Origin: an uncultured Eubacteriales bacterium
Lineage (GTDB): Bacteria; Bacillota; Clostridia; Oscillospirales; CAG-272
DNA: 64,000 nucleotides
NCBI GenBank assembly: GCA_900545935.1
Contig: URAP01000006.1
Coordinates: 2,669-66,668 of the forward strand
Reading direction: 5' to 3'
In this document: in pieces, positions 5,335 through 11,417 of the stretch
How positions within the stretch are numbered: the stretch's first letter is position 1
Layout: the number at the start of each line of letters is the position of its first letter
Program-made: the position numbers and the translations under genes
Notes under the pieces: generated by a model
The model's input: only the letters and a program-made list of their open reading frames with translations
The model's database searches: none
Told to the model about the DNA's origin: nothing

Positions 5335-5486
5335 AATACATTTGGCGATGAATCGGAAAGCAGTATCCGTCCGCCGCTCGAGTGACAGCATCGCTTTAAC
5401 AAATGCTTGAGCGGATTCAATGGATTCAATGCTCGTCATCGCCGCTTGATTATTAAATTTTCAAGACGGTTATTTAGTCCTTACTG

Positions 5487-6200
5487 TTATTTAGCCTTTC
5501 CGAGATATGCTTCCTTAACCGACTCGTTATGCAGCAGCTCGTCTCCGGTGCCGGTGAGTGTAAGCCTACCGGTCTCGATAACATAGCCGTAGTCGGCTAT
5601 CTTAAGCGCAAGATTGGCGTTCTGCTCGTTGAGAAGAACGGTGATGCCCGCCTTGTTGATGGTAACGATGATATCAAAGATATCGCGTACGACAAGCGGT
5701 GCAAGTCCGAGCGACGGCTCATCCATCATAATTAGCTTCGGACGGCTCATCAGTGCGCGCCCGACCGCGAGCATCTGCTGCTCACCTCCGGAGAGCGTTC
5801 CTGCATGCTGCCAGTGACGCTCACGCAGACGCGGGAAGAGAGAGTAGACATATTCGAGATCGTTGCTGAGCTTATCCTTGCGCAGATATGCGCCTATCTT
5901 CAGGTTCTCGAGGACGGTAAGGTTCGGGAAAACTCTGCGTCCCTCGGGGACGAGAGTTACGCCGCGTGCGACTATCTTATCCGGGGACAGTCCCACAATG
6001 CTCTCTCCGTTCAGGAGAATGTCACCGCTTGTGGGGCGTACGATTCCCGATACAGAGCGGAGAATGGTCGATTTACCCGCGCCGTTTGCACCGATGAGGG
6101 TGATTATCTTCCCCTCCTGGACATTCATTGAGATGCCGTCTACTGCGCGAATGCCGCCGAAGCGAACATTCAGGTCTTTTATTTCAAGAATATTACTCAT
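5487..6200 (-). CDS. livF: Branched-chain amino acid ABC transporter, ATP-binding protein
   Basis: Walker A GANGAGKST, signature LSGGEQQ, LivF-like length, and an 8-nt overlap with livG. Confidence 0.9.
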   Translation of the reverse strand: MSNILEIKDLNVRFGGIRAVDGISMNVQEGKIITLIGANGAGKSTILRSVSGIVRPTSGDILLNGESIVGLSPDKIVARGVTLVPEGRRVFPNLTVLENLKIGAYLRKDKLSNDLEYVYSLFPRLRERHWQHAGTLSGGEQQMLAVGRALMSRPKLIMMDEPSLGLAPLVVRDIFDIIVTINKAGITVLLNEQNANLALKIADYGYVIETGRLTLTGTGDELLHNESVKEAYLGKAK

Positions 6201-7038
6201 CTTCGTCTACTACCCCCAGATATGCCTCGATAACGCGCGGGTTTGCCTGTATCTCCGCAGGCGTTCCCTCCGCTATCTCCTTGCCGAAGTCGATAACATA
6301 GATGCGGTCGGAGATGTCCATGACGAGGTTCATATGGTGCTCTATGAGCAGGATGGTGATATTGAACTTTGCGCGGATATCGTGGATAAACGCGGTCAAC
6401 TCCTCGGTCTCCTGCGGGTTCATTCCCGCTGCGGGCTCGTCGAGCAGCAGCAGCGACGGCTGCGTTGCGAGCGCACGGGCTATCTCGAGCTTGCGCTGCT
6501 TGCCGTAGGGCAGGCTCGTTGCGAGCTCGTCCTTGACATCCTCAAGCTCCACAAGGCGCAGCAGCTCGAGCGTTTCTTCACGCATTCTGCGCTCCTCGCG
6601 GTAGTTAAGGCGAAATGTCGCGGTCAAGAAGTTGGAGGTGCGGCGGAGGTGCTTTGCGGTCAAAACGTTGTCGAACACCGTCATTGACTTGAACAGCCGT
6701 ATATTCTGAAATGTTCTCGCCATACCGAGCTTTGTCAGCTTATCGGGCGTTTTTGTTATTACAGAATGATACTTGCCGAGATTTTCGCCGGCATATAGGC
6801 GGCGCATCTTACCGTGCGGATGATTTTCGATTATCTTTTCGCCGCAGAAGCTGATGCAGCCGTTCGTCGGCTCGTATTCGCCGGTGATCACGTTAAAGGC
6901 GGTTGTCTTTCCTGCACCGTTAGGACCGATGAGGGCGACTATCTCGCCGCGGTTGACATCCATCGTCAGGTTGTTGACGGCGACAACGCCGCCGAACTGC
7001 ATTGTTATGTTTTCTACGTGCAGAACATTTTCGCTCAT
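6193..7038 (-). CDS. livG: Branched-chain amino acid ABC transporter, ATP-binding protein
   Basis: Walker A GPNGAGKTT, the LivG-type insertion, and the C-terminal IEAYLG motif. Confidence 0.9.
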   Translation of the reverse strand: MSENVLHVENITMQFGGVVAVNNLTMDVNRGEIVALIGPNGAGKTTAFNVITGEYEPTNGCISFCGEKIIENHPHGKMRRLYAGENLGKYHSVITKTPDKLTKLGMARTFQNIRLFKSMTVFDNVLTAKHLRRTSNFLTATFRLNYREERRMREETLELLRLVELEDVKDELATSLPYGKQRKLEIARALATQPSLLLLDEPAAGMNPQETEELTAFIHDIRAKFNITILLIEHHMNLVMDISDRIYVIDFGKEIAEGTPAEIQANPRVIEAYLGVVDEDE

Positions 7039-8126
7039 TATCGCGCGTCCTCCTTTGCGGTCTTTTTGCCCTTACCGGAGAAGAATCTGCCTATCCGGAC
7101 GCAGCTGTCGTATACCGATATTTCTCTCGTTCCCATGATACCTCGGCGGAAGAAGAGCACAACTATCATGATGAGCACCGAGAATACGACCATACGGAAG
7201 CCGGGGCCGAGCAGCGGAACATTCTCGTTCTCGAGGTCGAGAAATTTCAGCCACCACTCGGAGGAGGCATAGTAGATAAACGACGCGATAAGCGAGCCGG
7301 ATATCGAGCCGATACCGCCGATAACTACGACGAGCAGTATCTGATAGGTCATTGCAGAGGTGAAGGATACCGAGGAAACGGCAGAGTTGCACATTGCAAA
7401 CATTGCACCCGCAATGCCGCAGAAGAAGGAGCTTGTCACGAAGGACAGCCGCTTGTGGTGGGCGAGGTTGATGCCCATTGCTTCGGCTGCTATCTCATCG
7501 TCGCGAATAGCCTTGAAGGCTCTGCCGTAGGTCGAGTTTATCAGTAGGACTATAATGCATATGCACACACCCGCGAGCGCGGCGTATACCATTATGTTCT
7601 TAGGCGATGTAAAGTTGTTTATCGGGTCGGGTCCGTTCGTGACGGGTCCGAACTGCGTCAGCTGAACGAGTCCGCGCACTATCTCCGCAAAGCCGAGTGT
7701 GGCTATTGCGAGGTAGTCGGACTTGAGGCGCAGTACCGGCAGACCGATGAGAAACGCGAAGAAAGCGGCGACAAGACCTGCGAGCAGCAGCGCGACTATC
7801 ATCGGCAGCTTGAAGTTGACGATGCTGTCTCCGTAGTTGCGGAATACGGTGGTGCGCATGTCGGCAGCGATGGTAAAGACGGAGTATGTATACGCGCCGA
7901 GCAGCATAAAGCCCGCCTGACCGAGCGAGAACAGTCCCGTAAAGCCGTTGAGTAGGTTCATTGCGACCGCCGCAAGAGCAAAGGTGCAGACCTTACGCAG
8001 CACCGAAAACCACATCGAGGTGGCGGGCGCGGTGTACTGTATGATCATGAAAACGCCGAAGATCACGAGAACGAGTATAAGGTTGCAGATGGTTCTCTTG
8101 TATCTGTCCCAGAATGAGGTTTTCAT
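7038..8126 (-). CDS. livM: Branched-chain amino acid ABC transporter permease
   Basis: Polytopic membrane protein whose stop overlaps the livG start. LivM-like LSLGQAGFMLLGAYT motif. Confidence 0.85.
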   Translation of the reverse strand: MKTSFWDRYKRTICNLILVLVIFGVFMIIQYTAPATSMWFSVLRKVCTFALAAVAMNLLNGFTGLFSLGQAGFMLLGAYTYSVFTIAADMRTTVFRNYGDSIVNFKLPMIVALLLAGLVAAFFAFLIGLPVLRLKSDYLAIATLGFAEIVRGLVQLTQFGPVTNGPDPINNFTSPKNIMVYAALAGVCICIIVLLINSTYGRAFKAIRDDEIAAEAMGINLAHHKRLSFVTSSFFCGIAGAMFAMCNSAVSSVSFTSAMTYQILLVVVIGGIGSISGSLIASFIYYASSEWWLKFLDLENENVPLLGPGFRMVVFSVLIMIVVLFFRRGIMGTREISVYDSCVRIGRFFSGKGKKTAKEDAR

Positions 8127-8129
8127 ATA

Positions 8130-9011
8130 TCACACCTTCTCTCTTGTCTGCTCGCCGAAGATGCCGTTTGGCTTTACAACGAGAATGATTATGAGCAGGG
8201 CAAAGGAGATAACGTCGGCAAAGTCGGCGAGTCCGAATGCCCTTGCAAGGCTCTCTACGATACCGATTATTATCGCGCCCACGACCGCGCCGGGAACAGA
8301 GCCGATACCGCCGACGACCGCAGCGATGAACGCTTTGATTCCGGGGGTGGAGCCGGCGAGATGGTTGATTCCCGAGTTCTTGGAAAAGTAGAGCAGCGAG
8401 CCTGCGGCTGCAAGGAATGCGCCGATGGCAAAGGTTATCGAGATAACGCGGTTTATCTTGATGCCCATGAGCTGCGAGGTCTCGAAGTCACGTGATACCG
8501 CGCGCATCGACATACCGAATTTTGTATGATTGATGATGAGCACGAGTATTACGGTGAGCACTATCGCGACCACCGGAGAAAGGAATACCGATATCTTGTC
8601 CTTTACTCCGAACAGCACAAAGCTGTCGCTCAGGAACGGGAGGGCGGGAAACTGCTTGGACATACCACCGGTAACGTATGCGACGACATTCTGAAGCAGG
8701 TAGGAAACGCCGATAGCCGAGATCATTACCGACATACGCGGTGCTGAGCGGAGCGGCGAATATGCACATTTTTCGATAAGAAAGCCTATCAGTACCGTAA
8801 GCGCAATCATAATGATGATGGCGACGAGCGGCGGCATGGTTGGGAAGTCCGCCATCAGATAGATCAGCAGCATACCGGATACCATAAACAGATCGCCGTG
8901 GGCAAAGTTTATGAGTTTAAGTATGCCGTAGACCATGGTATAGCCGATGGCGACGAGCGCAAACTGACCGCCGGTCGCGAGACCGCGGATCAGGTATGGC
9001 ATAATATTCAT
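8130..9011 (-). CDS. livH: Branched-chain amino acid ABC transporter permease
   Basis: The internal ATG at 9011 (MNIMPYLIRGLATGG) gives a canonical LivH N-terminus. The 51-codon upstream extension in the track is Arg/Cys-rich and not protein-like. Confidence 0.85.
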   Translation of the reverse strand: MNIMPYLIRGLATGGQFALVAIGYTMVYGILKLINFAHGDLFMVSGMLLIYLMADFPTMPPLVAIIIMIALTVLIGFLIEKCAYSPLRSAPRMSVMISAIGVSYLLQNVVAYVTGGMSKQFPALPFLSDSFVLFGVKDKISVFLSPVVAIVLTVILVLIINHTKFGMSMRAVSRDFETSQLMGIKINRVISITFAIGAFLAAAGSLLYFSKNSGINHLAGSTPGIKAFIAAVVGGIGSVPGAVVGAIIIGIVESLARAFGLADFADVISFALLIIILVVKPNGIFGEQTREKV

Positions 9012-9231
9012 GGGCTTTTTAGGTCCTTTCGGTTTGATCGTTGTTCGGATATGCGGCGGCGTATGCGCACGGCGCACACAGCAGCGCGCACACAGAATAT
9101 ATCGGGGGGTGCCGTACACCGCAGCCGCAGCTGTGTGTACATTGCTGTGTGTAAGGCAATACACGGAGTATATCTTTACGCCTTATAACGCAGGCGGCAT
9201 ATCCTTATAGCTGGAAATACAGCCGTATAAT

Positions 9232-9278
9232 CGCAGCCGCGGCGGTACACCGCATGGGTGTATCGCCGCGGCACTGCG
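9232..9278 (-). promoter_or_regulatory. Hairpin of about 20 bp in the binding-protein/livH intercistronic spacer
   Basis: CGCAG-CCGCGGCG-GTACACC ... GGTGTAT-CGCCGCGG-ca-CTGCG. No U-tract follows on the minus strand. Confidence 0.5.
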
Positions 9279-9485
9279 AGTTATAGCCGTAGACTGCCGT
9301 AGGCAGCTATTCTTTTGGGGTATCGGCTGTCAAAAAACTCGTAATTTTACAGCCGCGAATCGGTTGTGGATAGATAAAAATGCCCGGGAAAATGTTCTGA
9401 GTGATGCCCGCAGCATAGTATTTCTGCTGTGCTAAAGCGGGATAGTCAATTTTTTGCCCCGACTTTTTTTCATACCCTCAGAGGA

Positions 9486-10769
9486 TTACTTGCTTATAGT
9501 ATCCCACGCGAAGTTTGCCATAACCGAGCCCTGGAATGGATCGAGGAAGCAGGTACGGAAATAGAAGTCATGTCCCTCGGTTACCGATGCATTGGTGCAG
9601 GAAACGCCGATGGCGGGGATGCCTGCTGCCGCAAAGGTATCTGCTGCTGCGATGGAAACACCGGAGCCGTAGGAGCCGAGCGAGATGAGCGCATGCTGGT
9701 TGACGATGTTGGAAGCTGCGGTAACCGCCTGCTCGTCGACCGAGCCGTTATCGGAGACGTACAGCTCAACGGTGTACTCCTCGCCTGCGATAGTTACCTT
9801 GTTGTCGAGGCTGTTAGCGTACTGAGCGCCGATGACCTCCTGCTTACCGCCTGCGGCATTATCGCCCGAGGTAGGCTCAAATACGCCGATAACGATCTTC
9901 TTGCCCTCGGTATCGAGCTTGACACCGTCGGTGGTGTAGGTGGCGGGAGTGCCCTGAGTTGCGTCGTTTGCGACGGTCTGAGTCTTGACAAACTCAAACT
10001 TGCCGTCGCCTGCCTTCTTTATGTATGCGCAGTCCTTGATAGCGTCGCCGTTCTTGTCGAATGTGATGTCGCCGGTAACGCCGCCCTTGTAGTTGAGCTT
10101 CCAGAGTGCGGTAGCGATATCGACCGAGGTCATATCGGCACCCTTTTCCTCTGCAGCTGCGCGGATAGCGCTGAGTGCTACATTGTAAGCGTCAAAGCCG
10201 AGAGCGGACACGGCTGCTACGATATCGTTGCCGCCGTTCATCTGGAGCTTGTCGGGATTATCTGCGAGCCACTTCTTGAAGCCGGTGACGAAGTTGCCTG
10301 CCGCCTCGGAGGAGGTATCGGACTCGTCGAAGAAGGTGGAGCAGTAGACATCAAGATCGGTGCCCTTTACAGCGTCGAGAATTACCGAGTGCTCCCATGT
10401 GTCGCCTGCCATGATCGGGCATGTGACGCCGACATCGTTTGCGTTCTTGAGCAGATTAGCCGCAACGGTTGTGGAGTTGGGGGCGAAGATCACGGCAGCC
10501 TTCTTGTCGATAGCCTTCTGAAGGTAATCGGAGAAGTTGGTCGTGTTCTTTACGAAGGTCTCCATTATAACCTCACCGCCGAGCTTTTCAAAGGCGGTCT
10601 GAAAGTTGCTTGCGAGACCGAGCGAGTAGGTGTCGCCTTTCTCCGCGAGAACGTATGCGACGGGTTTATCGCCGGTGGCCTGGTCGCCGTCGGTGGAGGT
10701 CTGTCCGCATCCCGTGATGCAGAGGCTGACCATGACGATGGCGAGGACAAGTGCAAAAAACTTTTTCAT
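9486..10769 (-). CDS. Type I (Leu/Ile/Val-type) substrate-binding lipoprotein with apparently circularly permuted domain order
   Basis: A GGAGG SD precedes the ATG at 10769. Lipobox is LCITGC. Residues 35-263 match the C-terminal half of LivJ/K-type proteins and residues 290-427 match the N-terminal half (KKIVIGVFEPTSGDNAAGG...). Confidence 0.8.
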   Translation of the reverse strand: MKKFFALVLAIVMVSLCITGCGQTSTDGDQATGDKPVAYVLAEKGDTYSLGLASNFQTAFEKLGGEVIMETFVKNTTNFSDYLQKAIDKKAAVIFAPNSTTVAANLLKNANDVGVTCPIMAGDTWEHSVILDAVKGTDLDVYCSTFFDESDTSSEAAGNFVTGFKKWLADNPDKLQMNGGNDIVAAVSALGFDAYNVALSAIRAAAEEKGADMTSVDIATALWKLNYKGGVTGDITFDKNGDAIKDCAYIKKAGDGKFEFVKTQTVANDATQGTPATYTTDGVKLDTEGKKIVIGVFEPTSGDNAAGGKQEVIGAQYANSLDNKVTIAGEEYTVELYVSDNGSVDEQAVTAASNIVNQHALISLGSYGSGVSIAAADTFAAAGIPAIGVSCTNASVTEGHDFYFRTCFLDPFQGSVMANFAWDTISK

Positions 10770-10850
10770 ATGCTTTTCCTCCATGTTTCTTTCGGTTTGC
10801 GTTTTCCCGAAACAAGCTATATTCGTGCGCAAACCGCATATATTACAAAT

Positions 10851-10879
10851 AGTATATAACATTTTTTTGCATTAGTCAA
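10851..10879 (-). promoter_or_regulatory. Promoter of the liv operon
   Basis: On the minus strand: TTGACT, a 17-nt spacer, then TATACT. The leader to the ATG at 10769 is about 75 nt. Confidence 0.55.
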
Positions 10880-11417
10880 GTATTTTGAATTGAAATATGA
10901 CATAATAAAGATTTTTTTTGAAATCGGTGTTAACGATATTTTGGCAATAAGACGAGATATTTCCTTTTTATGCTTCAAATGCAATTAAAAGGATTCGGAT
11001 GAGAGTTGTGATATTGCCTTACAGTCTCGCTTGTCGGCATTATCCGTAACCCCGTATTCCGCCGTTTTTTTGCCGGCGTTTGCCGCACCCGATCTAATGG
11101 CTTGCCGTATTCGCTGCGAAAATCCGTCCATGCATTATATTCGTGCGGCGGCGGAATGGTTACGTGCATTGCACAGATATGTTTTATTCGCGGTTTTTTT
11201 ACGGCGTCTGTTTCCGCAGTGTATCCCGCTCTACGGTCGGAAGCCGTCGCTTTTGACGGTAATTTCCGAGGCTGTGCTTTTTTGAGTCGTATATACATAT
11301 TTACTCTTTATTTTGCGCGGATGATGTGATATAATAAGGTAAACAATGCGGTGTGCCGTACGATCCGTCGGCAGCTTGCCGCGAACTGTATATACTATTA
11401 TATGGAGGGAAACTTCT

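Follow-up and report, generated by a model that had tools for sequence, protein, structure and literature searches.

The 64,000-nt stretch of DNA analysed here (hereafter the window) carries a lipoprotein gene in which the two halves of a Leu/Ile/Val (LIV)-type binding protein seem to stand in reverse order. This raises the questions of whether the swap is real, whether the gene still works, how it arose and whether such an arrangement was already known. A preliminary description of the locus had proposed a clean circular permutation of the LivJ/LivK fold and had predicted that hmmscan would return two partial matches with HMM coordinates in swapped order. This is what was found: the Pfam profile Peripla_BP_6 matches the native sequence in two stretches (98.4 bits in total for a cut-off of 31.7), residues 292-422 corresponding to HMM positions 2-130 (E 1e-12) and residues 46-254 to positions 145-339 (E 5e-17). 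ANF_receptor also matches (56 bits, cut-off 25.4). A phmmer search of the PDB gave the same picture with 3td9, since residues 290-425 of the query align with its residues 15-147 (i-E 4e-14) and residues 41-261 with its residues 155-359 (i-E 7e-11), and the pattern with 4gnr is swapped likewise. In this search, no PDB chain with the swapped order was found. Among the curated NCBIfam models, none spans the whole protein, the best one being a partial match (52 bits for a cut-off of 477). In place of the collinear domain that characterizes the LIV-type family, the C-terminal segment thus comes before the N-terminal one.

The converse comparison was made with a sequence de-permuted in silico. It yields a single collinear match (HMM 2-339, 111.5 bits), and its alignment with the canonical relative P0123 extends over the full length (366 positions, 55% identity); the artificial joint shows no more than a two-residue gap. 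The C-terminus of the permuted protein (...FAWDTISK) and its mature N-terminus (KPVAYVLAEKGD) abut exactly on the P0123 sequence ...FAKDELNAKKAGVIFQAGDD; the two blocks are therefore complementary at their boundaries, with neither loss nor duplication at the joint. Taken together, the swapped HMM and PDB matches and the collinear match of the de-permuted sequence support the proposed permutation and confirm that the swapped order in this amino-acid-binding lipoprotein is real and well beyond chance.

The layout of the gene and of its surroundings is given in Table 1. The block boundaries of the preliminary description proved correct (residues 35, 263, 290 and 427 falling at nt 10667, 9981, 9902 and 9489, respectively), as did its reading of an intact gene with a Shine-Dalgarno sequence and a lipoprotein signal. 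A longer ORF of 458 aa starts at 10862 but the promoter-like site lies within it, and the ATG at 10769 is therefore favoured as the true start. In the signal peptide, the lipobox reads I18-T19-G20-C21, with Cys21 as the lipidation site, and M1, K2, K3 and C21 are invariant among 44 family members. The front block (residues 35-263) comprises most of lobe II, the second lobe I segment and the C-terminal hairpin. The rear block (residues 290-427), which also corresponds to positions 23-160 of the NCBIfam LivJ/K model, comprises the first lobe I segment, the first crossover and the first lobe II helix. The new termini had been placed in the hinge, and this part of the earlier proposal has to be corrected: in the alignment to LivJ, the break lies near residue 139/141 of that protein, within a lobe II surface loop, past the first helix of this lobe and ahead of its first strand, i.e. 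some 20 residues beyond the first hinge crossover. Canonical relatives end at ...KTQSVK, and the linker has no counterpart in them. Within this conserved linker, Y278 and L285 are invariant in the family; its median dN/dS (0.28) is higher than that of the two halves (about 0.1).

Table 1. Coordinates of the permuted lipoprotein gene, its parts, its signals and the neighbouring transporter genes in the window.
Feature	Coordinates	Strand	Basis or remark
livF-like ATPase gene	5487..6200	-	Best NCBIfam match LivF, E 1e-81
livG-like ATPase gene	6193..7038	-	Best NCBIfam match LivG, E 6e-87
livM-like permease gene	7038..8126	-	Best NCBIfam match LivM, E 1e-36
livH-like permease gene	8130..9011	-	Best NCBIfam match LivH, E 9e-57
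Spacer between binding-protein gene and livH	9012..9485	-	Unusually long, highly structured (RNA MFE)
Stop codon	9486..9488	-	Family-typical place, directly past the ...FAWDTISK helix
Lipoprotein gene (427 aa)	9486..10769	-	ORF intact
Canonical first-half block, residues 290-427	9489..9902	-	Peripla_BP_6 HMM 2-130; 3td9 15-147
Linker, residues 264-289	9903..9980	-	Joins ancestral C-terminus to ancestral N-terminus; without canonical counterpart
Canonical second-half block, residues 35-263	9981..10667	-	Peripla_BP_6 HMM 145-339; 3td9 155-359
Low-complexity tether from lipid anchor to fold, residues 22-34	10668..10706	-	Low pLDDT, variable family consensus
Signal peptide with lipobox ITGC, residues 1-21	10707..10769	-	Sequence
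Shine-Dalgarno GGAGG	10778..10782	-	8 nt 5′ of the ATG; read from sequence
Promoter-like TTGACT-17-TATACT, 5′ of the binding-protein gene	10851..10879	-	Consensus scan only

All carriers of the permuted gene are uncultured metagenome-assembled genomes (MAGs), so that a chimeric or mis-joined contig has to be considered as the source of the swapped order. Its probability is practically nil. The search for orthologues revealed numerous proteins with the same swapped order: at least 115 protein clusters, out of 270 homologues collected (the best 120 and the best 150 among roughly 7,000), have the C-N order (second half first) and the same ends, and at least 21 species-representative genomes of gut and rumen Clostridia carry the permuted form. 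It was recovered independently in NCBI, ENA, JGI and Logan assemblies, on contigs that include some of 100-430 kb. Moreover, the permuted orthologues are 57-98% identical and have thus diverged, which means that a single error has not simply been copied.

The same architecture would be left by a deletion that spans a tandem pair of paralogues and fuses the C-half of a first gene to the N-half of a second one, and the gene could then be a non-functional remnant of a tandem duplication. We regard this as highly improbable in view of the constraint on the sequence. The dN/dS against the nearest orthologue (L003) is 0.012 and the family median is about 0.1 in either half, as under strong purifying selection; the frame is intact, and the family alignment has 130 invariant columns. 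The same type of signal peptide begins all 23 orthologous genes compared, and the C-terminus lies within a few residues of the FAWDTISK helix in each of the 23. The genetic context also argues against a remnant. As had been described, the gene sits upstream of a livHMGF set, its four downstream neighbours matching LivH, LivM, LivG and LivF best; wherever a locus has enough flanking sequence, the permuted gene is followed by livH, livM and livG, and livF was confirmed in the window and in L002 only (from precomputed Pfam ABC_tran annotation). At every locus examined, the permuted gene is the sole binding-protein gene of its operon; no canonical paralogue was found within about 5 kb at these loci nor in the window, where tblastn detected no other LIV-type gene. 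These comparisons indicate that the permuted gene is neither an assembly artefact nor decaying, and the earlier judgement that it is probably functional is strengthened by the low dN/dS, the conserved frame, signal and stop, and the operon context.

AlphaFold2 predicts one compact fold with good confidence (pLDDT 88.4, pTM 0.84), and the secondary-structure elements of the model come in the expected permuted order. Around the tether, residues 19-32 have pLDDT below 50; the linker is predicted to be ordered (pLDDT 87-92). Foldseek, a sequential aligner, matched the permuted model to LivK (3td9) over 234 columns (TMt 0.53) and to LivK-like chains over 234-252 columns, compared to 360 columns (TMt 0.84) between 3td9 and the N-C2 part of a relative with a second C-half (C-N-C order); this contrast between C-N and C-N-C proteins stood in for a structural alignment aware of circular permutation. 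After the lipid anchor and the short tether, the chain would begin with the first β-strand of lobe II and run through the canonical second half, the conserved linker of about 25 residues and the canonical first half, to end at the first helix of lobe II. Judging from the pTM and the sequence correspondence, the two halves would reassemble in one chain around a normal ligand cleft. The lobes would be joined by four connections instead of three, the linker being the presumed fourth, and the membrane anchor would be on lobe II and not on lobe I.

The two blocks could instead meet between chains, the C-block of one chain completing the N-block of another in a domain-swapped dimer or oligomer, or only one block could be functional. 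Permuted and half constructs of periplasmic binding proteins (PBPs) do dimerise or swap, at least in cases such as the ribose-binding protein halves described in PMC9815098. For the LIV protein, we nevertheless consider such an arrangement improbable, because the monomer is confidently predicted as a single unit, the linker is ordered, conserved and, with about 25 residues, long enough, and both blocks are under equal constraint.

Ligand contacts can be placed by alignment with an E. coli LivJ sequence and contact numbering that we take to be correct (the numbering is self-consistent but does not come from a database record). In LivJ, S79, T102, Y150, Y202 and E226 are presumably the residues that hold the α-amino and α-carboxylate groups of the ligand. 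On this assumed numbering, S369, T392, Y48 and D123 of the permuted protein align with LivJ S79, T102, Y150 and E226, and all four are invariant in the 44 family members. The ligand cleft would therefore combine Ser369 and Thr392 from the C-terminal block with Tyr48 and Asp123 from the N-terminal one. On the same assumed LivJ sequence, Y18 is replaced by Gly307 and Y202 by Ser99; since neither is conserved, the specificity may be different from Leu/Ile/Val. The protein would bind an amino acid and deliver it to LivHM as its canonical relatives do. Overall, the gene very probably encodes the lipid-anchored substrate-binding component of an amino-acid ABC importer of the LivHMGF type (HAAT family), and its product would be a member of a conserved, permuted Type I lineage.

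Compared to LivJ/LivK and their structures (1z15, 1usg, 3td9, 4gnr), this protein is homologous across its whole mature length, belongs to the same Type I / cluster B and shares the operon partners LivH/M/G/F. It differs by its swapped halves, by the 25-residue linker that joins the old termini and, according to the model, by a lipid-anchored N-terminus on lobe II and by four inter-lobe connections instead of three. The preliminary description knew of no report of this arrangement in the family, and we likewise found no description of a permuted LIV-family binding protein in the literature searched; periplasmic binding proteins go unmentioned in the main text of the CIRPIN permutation survey (PMC13552848). 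However, a permuted Type I protein has a precedent in TpMglB-2 (Tp0684) of Treponema pallidum, a natural circularly permuted glucose-binding lipoprotein of 'Type Ic / Cluster Bc' (Brautigam et al. 2016, PMC4990184). It is an MglB-like sugar-binding protein with a Ca2+ site, for which a crystal structure and binding data exist, and its homologues are mostly found in Gram-positive gut commensals (PMC4990184). In TpMglB-2, some 70-100 residues that make up the first three N-lobe strands have moved to the C-terminus, and their sequence resembles that of canonical proteins only poorly (PMC4990184).

Both proteins are permuted members of Type I / cluster B with N-terminal elements at the C-terminus and a lipid tether, and the fourth crossover in the hinge region of TpMglB-2 would have its like in the LIV protein. 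However, TpMglB-2 belongs to a sugar-binding MglB-like family, whereas the LIV protein matches only Peripla_BP_6 and LIV models. The LIV protein, known from sequence and prediction, also has another break point and moves about 135 residues, i.e. the whole first lobe I segment, the first crossover and the first lobe II helix. By these comparisons, it is like 'Type Ic / Cluster Bc' in kind but lies outside that family, and it is apparently the first reported permuted case in the Leu/Ile/Val-binding family. Engineered circular permutants and permuted halves of PBPs, among them the ribose-binding protein halves (PMC9815098) and PBP-based biosensors, illustrate that this fold can accommodate termini in new places; such constructs are man-made, whereas the LIV lineage is natural and has been kept by selection.

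Trees were built separately for the two halves from Kimura distances, with bootstrap bipartitions counted directly. Both trees recover the permuted clade as monophyletic (bootstrap 84% and 100%), which points to a single origin. The two halves have the same nearest canonical relatives (P0123, P0124 and P0125), and the first-half block is 64% identical to the canonical N-half. The lineage would have arisen once from a P0123-like canonical lipoprotein, and the likeliest route would be a tandem duplication whose copies were fused in frame and then lost the first N-half and the last C-half. This route of duplication, fusion and truncation, already put forward in the preliminary description, is plausible, as natural N-C-N-C tandem fusions occur in the superfamily (P0165, P0182, P0231 and P0249). 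At the C-to-N junction, these fusions run collinearly with the permuted protein, as seen for P0165 (772 aa) and P0182 (780 aa): residues 38-423 of the query align in one stretch, across the junction, with residues 195-559 of P0165. Such proteins indicate that the first step of a duplication model does take place in the superfamily. However, they consist of two complete domains, are only about 30-34% identical to the permuted protein and are phylogenetically distant from its clade, and thus are not direct intermediates. No close N-C-N-C intermediate was found among the homologues listed (the best 120 and 150 of about 7,000), and tblastn detected no remnant of a second C-half in the 474-nt spacer 3′ of the stop codon.

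The C-N-C proteins P0002-P0007 (658-659 aa) were considered as duplication intermediates and rejected, since they branch inside the permuted clade; their placement outside it has bootstrap values of 11% and 0%. Over the first 430 residues, they share 96-98% identity with particular C-N proteins, and in the second C-half 97% identity with the canonical-type P0145. Furthermore, the junction of P0007 is unlike that of the others, so that at least two junction types exist. All this indicates that the C-N-C proteins arose recently by recombination with a paralogue of normal order and are derived, not ancestral. With the C-N-C proteins secondary and a close intermediate lacking, the mechanism of duplication, fusion and truncation is to be taken as a reconstruction. 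Recombination between paralogues, or fission followed by re-fusion in reverse order, may instead have produced the permutation, and the recombination of the permuted gene with a canonical paralogue lends this some weight, as does the lack of a close N-C-N-C protein. We hold such an origin to be possible but somewhat doubtful: the two halves share their nearest canonical relatives, tandem fusions occur elsewhere in the superfamily, and the signal peptide must stay in front, as it would if a fused tandem had lost an internal segment in frame.

LivJ and LivK are textbook models of hinge-bending ligand capture and serve as biosensor scaffolds. The permuted lineage is natural, well populated and 55% identical to normal-order relatives. 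It therefore offers matched pairs in which the effects of connectivity, of a fourth strap and of the anchor position on folding, hinge dynamics, affinity and permease docking could be compared, and its new termini, already tested by natural selection, could be used in sensor design. It also extends the idea of a permuted Type I protein, which the literature found had restricted to the TpMglB-2 sugar family, to an amino-acid-binding family. A more speculative reading, to which we give rather little credence, is that the permutation is not neutral: the anchor on lobe II and the fourth strap would alter the open/closed equilibrium or the docking to LivHM and would have been fixed for this reason in this Clostridia lineage. 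The lineage also recombines with canonical paralogues to give C-N-C proteins, whose N-half is predicted to pair with the newly acquired C-half of canonical order. If the speculative reading is true, this would provide a natural system for studying circular permutation and its reversal among close relatives. For annotation, it should be emphasized that permuted proteins give two out-of-order partial domain matches; public records name them only 'ABC transporter substrate-binding protein'.

Finally, the spacer that separates livH from the binding-protein gene has an RNA MFE of -169 kcal/mol (z = -4.7). An Rfam search of the flanks gave nothing at gathering score, the lone match to a miRNA model being at chance level (22 bits for a threshold of 100, E 0.59). 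The corresponding spacer measures 70-130 nt in most orthologous loci, and the long GC hairpin that it contains in the window is conserved in L003.

The two halves of canonical LivJ/LivK-type binding proteins (N-half and C-half) are in swapped order (C-N) in the binding lipoprotein of the window, and this inversion is real and far above chance. In a phmmer search of all PDB sequences, its residues 290-425 pair with residues 15-147 of 3td9 (LivK of T. maritima) and its residues 41-261 with residues 155-359. The same inversion is found with 4gnr, and every match to E. coli LivJ/LivK chains involves the C-terminal block only. As the preliminary description had predicted, the Pfam model Peripla_BP_6 matches in swapped order (HMM 145-339 on residues 46-254 and HMM 2-130 on residues 292-422); positions 23-160 of the NCBIfam LivJ/K model fall on residues 288-425. 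When the blocks were rejoined in canonical order in silico, we obtained a single collinear Pfam match (HMM 2-339; 111.5 bits compared to 98.4 bits for the native protein) and an end-to-end alignment with P0123 (405 aa), the nearest normal-order relative (55% identity over 366 positions). On P0123 (...FAKDELNAKKAGVIFQAGDD...), the C-terminus of the permuted protein (...FAWDTISK) and the start of its mature fold (KPVAYVLAEKGD...) adjoin exactly, with no residues lost and none doubled. Canonical proteins end at ...KTQSVK, whereas the permuted one runs on via a 25-residue linker to ...KKIVIGVFEP, the canonical first strand. The swapped alignments to PDB chains and HMMs, together with the collinearity after de-permutation, bear out the circular permutation of the LivJ/LivK fold initially proposed, for which the arithmetic of the residue and nucleotide block boundaries was also right.

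The ORF as mechanically called reaches 10862 (minus strand). However, the ATG at 10769 is favored as the probable true start, since (i) a GGAGG is found 8 nt upstream, (ii) a lipoprotein signal peptide (MKKFF...ITGC, Cys21) begins there and (iii) a promoter-like site (TTGACT-17-TATACT, 10879-10851) lies within the longer ORF. A signal of the same kind opens all 23 orthologous genes extracted.

Coordinates of the genes and of the spacer considered in this part
Feature	Position	Strand	Characteristics
ORF of the permuted binding protein	9486-10769	minus	intact, 427 aa from ATG at 10769
Spacer from binding-protein gene to livH	9012-9485	minus	474 nt
C-N-C gene (permuted protein plus second C-half)	L001:6001-7980		

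The AlphaFold2 model, obtained with the family alignment as input (mean pLDDT 88.4, pTM 0.84), is disordered only in the signal peptide and tether (linker pLDDT 87-92), and its secondary-structure elements follow the canonical order from another starting point. With Foldseek, a sequential aligner, only 234-252 columns of this model are superposed on LivK-like chains (TMq 0.44 and TMt 0.53 for 3td9). The search found no full-length PDB match at meaningful RMSD; the swapped chain order is therefore absent from solved structures. As a control, the N-C2 part of P0002, a permuted protein carrying a second C-half (C-N-C), matches 3td9 over 360 columns (TMt 0.84). The model strongly suggests that the two lobes are reassembled in the permuted chain.

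Lobe I of LivJ consists of residues 1-120 and 249-327 and lobe II of residues 121-248 and 328-346. In the alignment with the E. coli LivJ sequence, whose numbering reproduces Y18, S79, T102, Y150, Y202 and E226, the break falls near residue 139/141 of LivJ. Given these domain limits, it appears to interrupt a lobe II surface loop, between the first helix and first strand of this lobe, and not the hinge as previously stated. The chain would thus run from lobe II (36 to about 145) to lobe I (about 148-236), back to lobe II (about 237-265) and then, through the linker, to lobe I (291 to about 400) and lobe II (403-427). This path would imply four inter-lobe connections compared to three in the canonical form, and would move the lipid anchor from lobe I to lobe II. 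The ligand cleft is probably made from both blocks, since S369 and T392 from one and Y48 and D123 from the other align with LivJ contacts S79, T102, Y150 and E226, respectively, and are invariant within the permuted family. The positions of LivJ Y18 and Y202 are occupied by Gly307 and Ser99, and neither tyrosine is kept in the canonical P0123; therefore, the exact ligand may differ from that of LivJ.

The orthologue search revealed the same order in more than 100 protein clusters (420-435 aa, 67-80% identity, full coverage) from NCBI, ENA, JGI and Logan assemblies; where these carry an annotation, it is no more specific than 'ABC transporter substrate-binding protein'. Among the 270 homologues collected (best matches listed), 115 have the C-N order and 79 the canonical N-C order. 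In GTDB contigs (one genome per species), the permuted gene is present in at least 21 loci (L003-L021, L027 and L033), all from MAGs of gut or rumen Clostridia labelled Oscillospiraceae, Acutalibacteraceae, Ruminococcus, Lachnospiraceae or 'Eubacteriales'; no cultured carrier was seen among them. In the closest locus (L003, UMGS911), the permuted protein is 98% identical although the DNA is only about 90-91% identical; the corresponding dN/dS is 0.012 (dS 0.38). Across the permuted family, dN/dS has a median of about 0.1 in either half and of 0.28 in the linker. In the 44 members compared, 130 columns do not vary, and both blocks contain invariant motifs. The intact ORF, the low dN/dS and the invariant columns agree with the earlier view of an intact, probably functional gene; together with the independent recovery in many assemblies, they show a conserved family, neither an artefact nor a wreck. 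Among the matches listed from a library clustered at 50% identity, P0121 is the only full-length collinear representative (62% identity) and the next matches are canonical (48-54%), which makes this lineage compact and fairly young. Over the whole operon (window 5400-11400), the comparison with L003 (URDX01000002.1, a human-gut MAG) gives about 90-91% identity for DNA and 96-99% for proteins. The window probably originates from an uncultured species of Clostridia that is a near relative of UMGS911. One permuted-type locus (L017, CAVJBM010000106.1) carries the label 'Anaerovibrio sp.', and bins of Bacteroidaceae, Alloprevotella or Phocaeicola contain several canonical loci. Since all of them have sequences typical for Clostridia-clade members, these assignments probably result from binning errors rather than from horizontal transfer.

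P0123 is the nearest canonical relative of both halves (64% identity for the N-half, 51% for the C-half), followed for both by P0124 and P0125. Neighbour-joining trees were built for each half; counted over 200 bootstraps, a single bipartition unites the permuted proteins in 84% of the N-half trees and in 100% of the C-half trees, which indicates a single origin. The superfamily also includes N-C-N-C tandem fusions (P0165, P0182, P0231 and P0249), whose C-to-N junction is spanned by the permuted protein in one stretch, with an identity of only about 30-34%. The most economical route to the permutation would be duplication, then fusion, then double truncation, the first N-half being lost in frame and the signal peptide kept.

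A natural circular permutation has already been described in a Type I/cluster B binding protein, TpMglB-2 of Treponema pallidum; the authors drew attention to its fourth hinge crossover and suggested the classes 'Type Ic/Cluster Bc' (PMC4990184). Its homologues are mainly tethered proteins from spirochaetes and Gram-positive gut bacteria (PMC4990184). The permutation reported here is of a similar kind but concerns the LIV/Peripla_BP_6 family instead of MglB; its break point is elsewhere, the block moved is larger and the moved part is still highly identical to canonical relatives. In our full-text literature search, which was not exhaustive, no permuted member of the LIV family came up. Therefore, the suggested novelty appears to hold for this family but not for Type I binding proteins as a whole. 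Taken as a whole, the sequence data point to a real, conserved, naturally permuted and functional LIV-type binding lipoprotein, which is not a new kind of system but is of interest to specialists of protein evolution and SBPs.

The four genes downstream of the permuted gene in the window have LivH, LivM, LivG and LivF as best NCBIfam matches, so that the complete livHMGF set initially reported stands for the window; livH, livM and livG are found downstream of the permuted gene in all loci with enough flank. The spacer preceding livH is 474 nt long in the window compared to 332 nt in L003; most orthologous loci have 70-130 nt. Its predicted folding is unusually strong (MFE -169 kcal/mol, z -4.7) and includes a long GC hairpin (GCAGUGCCGCGGCGAUACACC / GGUGUACCGCCGCGGCUGC) kept in L003; an Rfam search of this spacer gave no match at gathering score. 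Possible roles are those of an intercistronic stabiliser, a processing site or a partial terminator setting the binding protein:permease ratio.

The C-N-C proteins (P0002-P0007, 658-659 aa) were considered as possible ancestors of the permuted ones, but this was rejected: they are nested within the permuted clade and their added C-half comes from a canonical-type lineage. This C-half shows 96.6% identity with the canonical-type P0145, with which it groups in 100% of bootstraps. The C-N-C proteins are recent products of recombination with a canonical paralogue. Over residues 1-430, P0006 shares 97.9% identity with the C-N protein P0086; P0002 shares 95.8% with the C-N proteins L015, L021 and P0068, and P0002 and P0006 share only 91% with each other. 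Five of these proteins have their junction at the conserved CFLDPFQG motif, and P0007 has it farther upstream. Repeated recombination or gene conversion is suggested by the existence of two or more junctions and of two sub-lineages, each nearest a different C-N protein. The C-N-C gene of L001 is directly upstream of livH. AlphaFold2 places the N-half against the new C-half in a canonical fold, so that these proteins would in effect be back to normal order; the first C-half is not confidently placed, since the whole-chain pTM is only 0.55. P0145 (324 aa), the paralogue from which the second C-half came, is about 80 residues short between ...GSYGSGVSIAASDTF and KQAFEKAGG..., where the N-half would end and the C-half begin; this is an internal deletion, or else an artefact of assembly or gene calling. 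Finally, P0160 (977 aa) and P0192 (714 aa) carry repeat-module extensions of 350-600 residues before canonical-order LIV-type domains, an unrelated architecture in the same superfamily.
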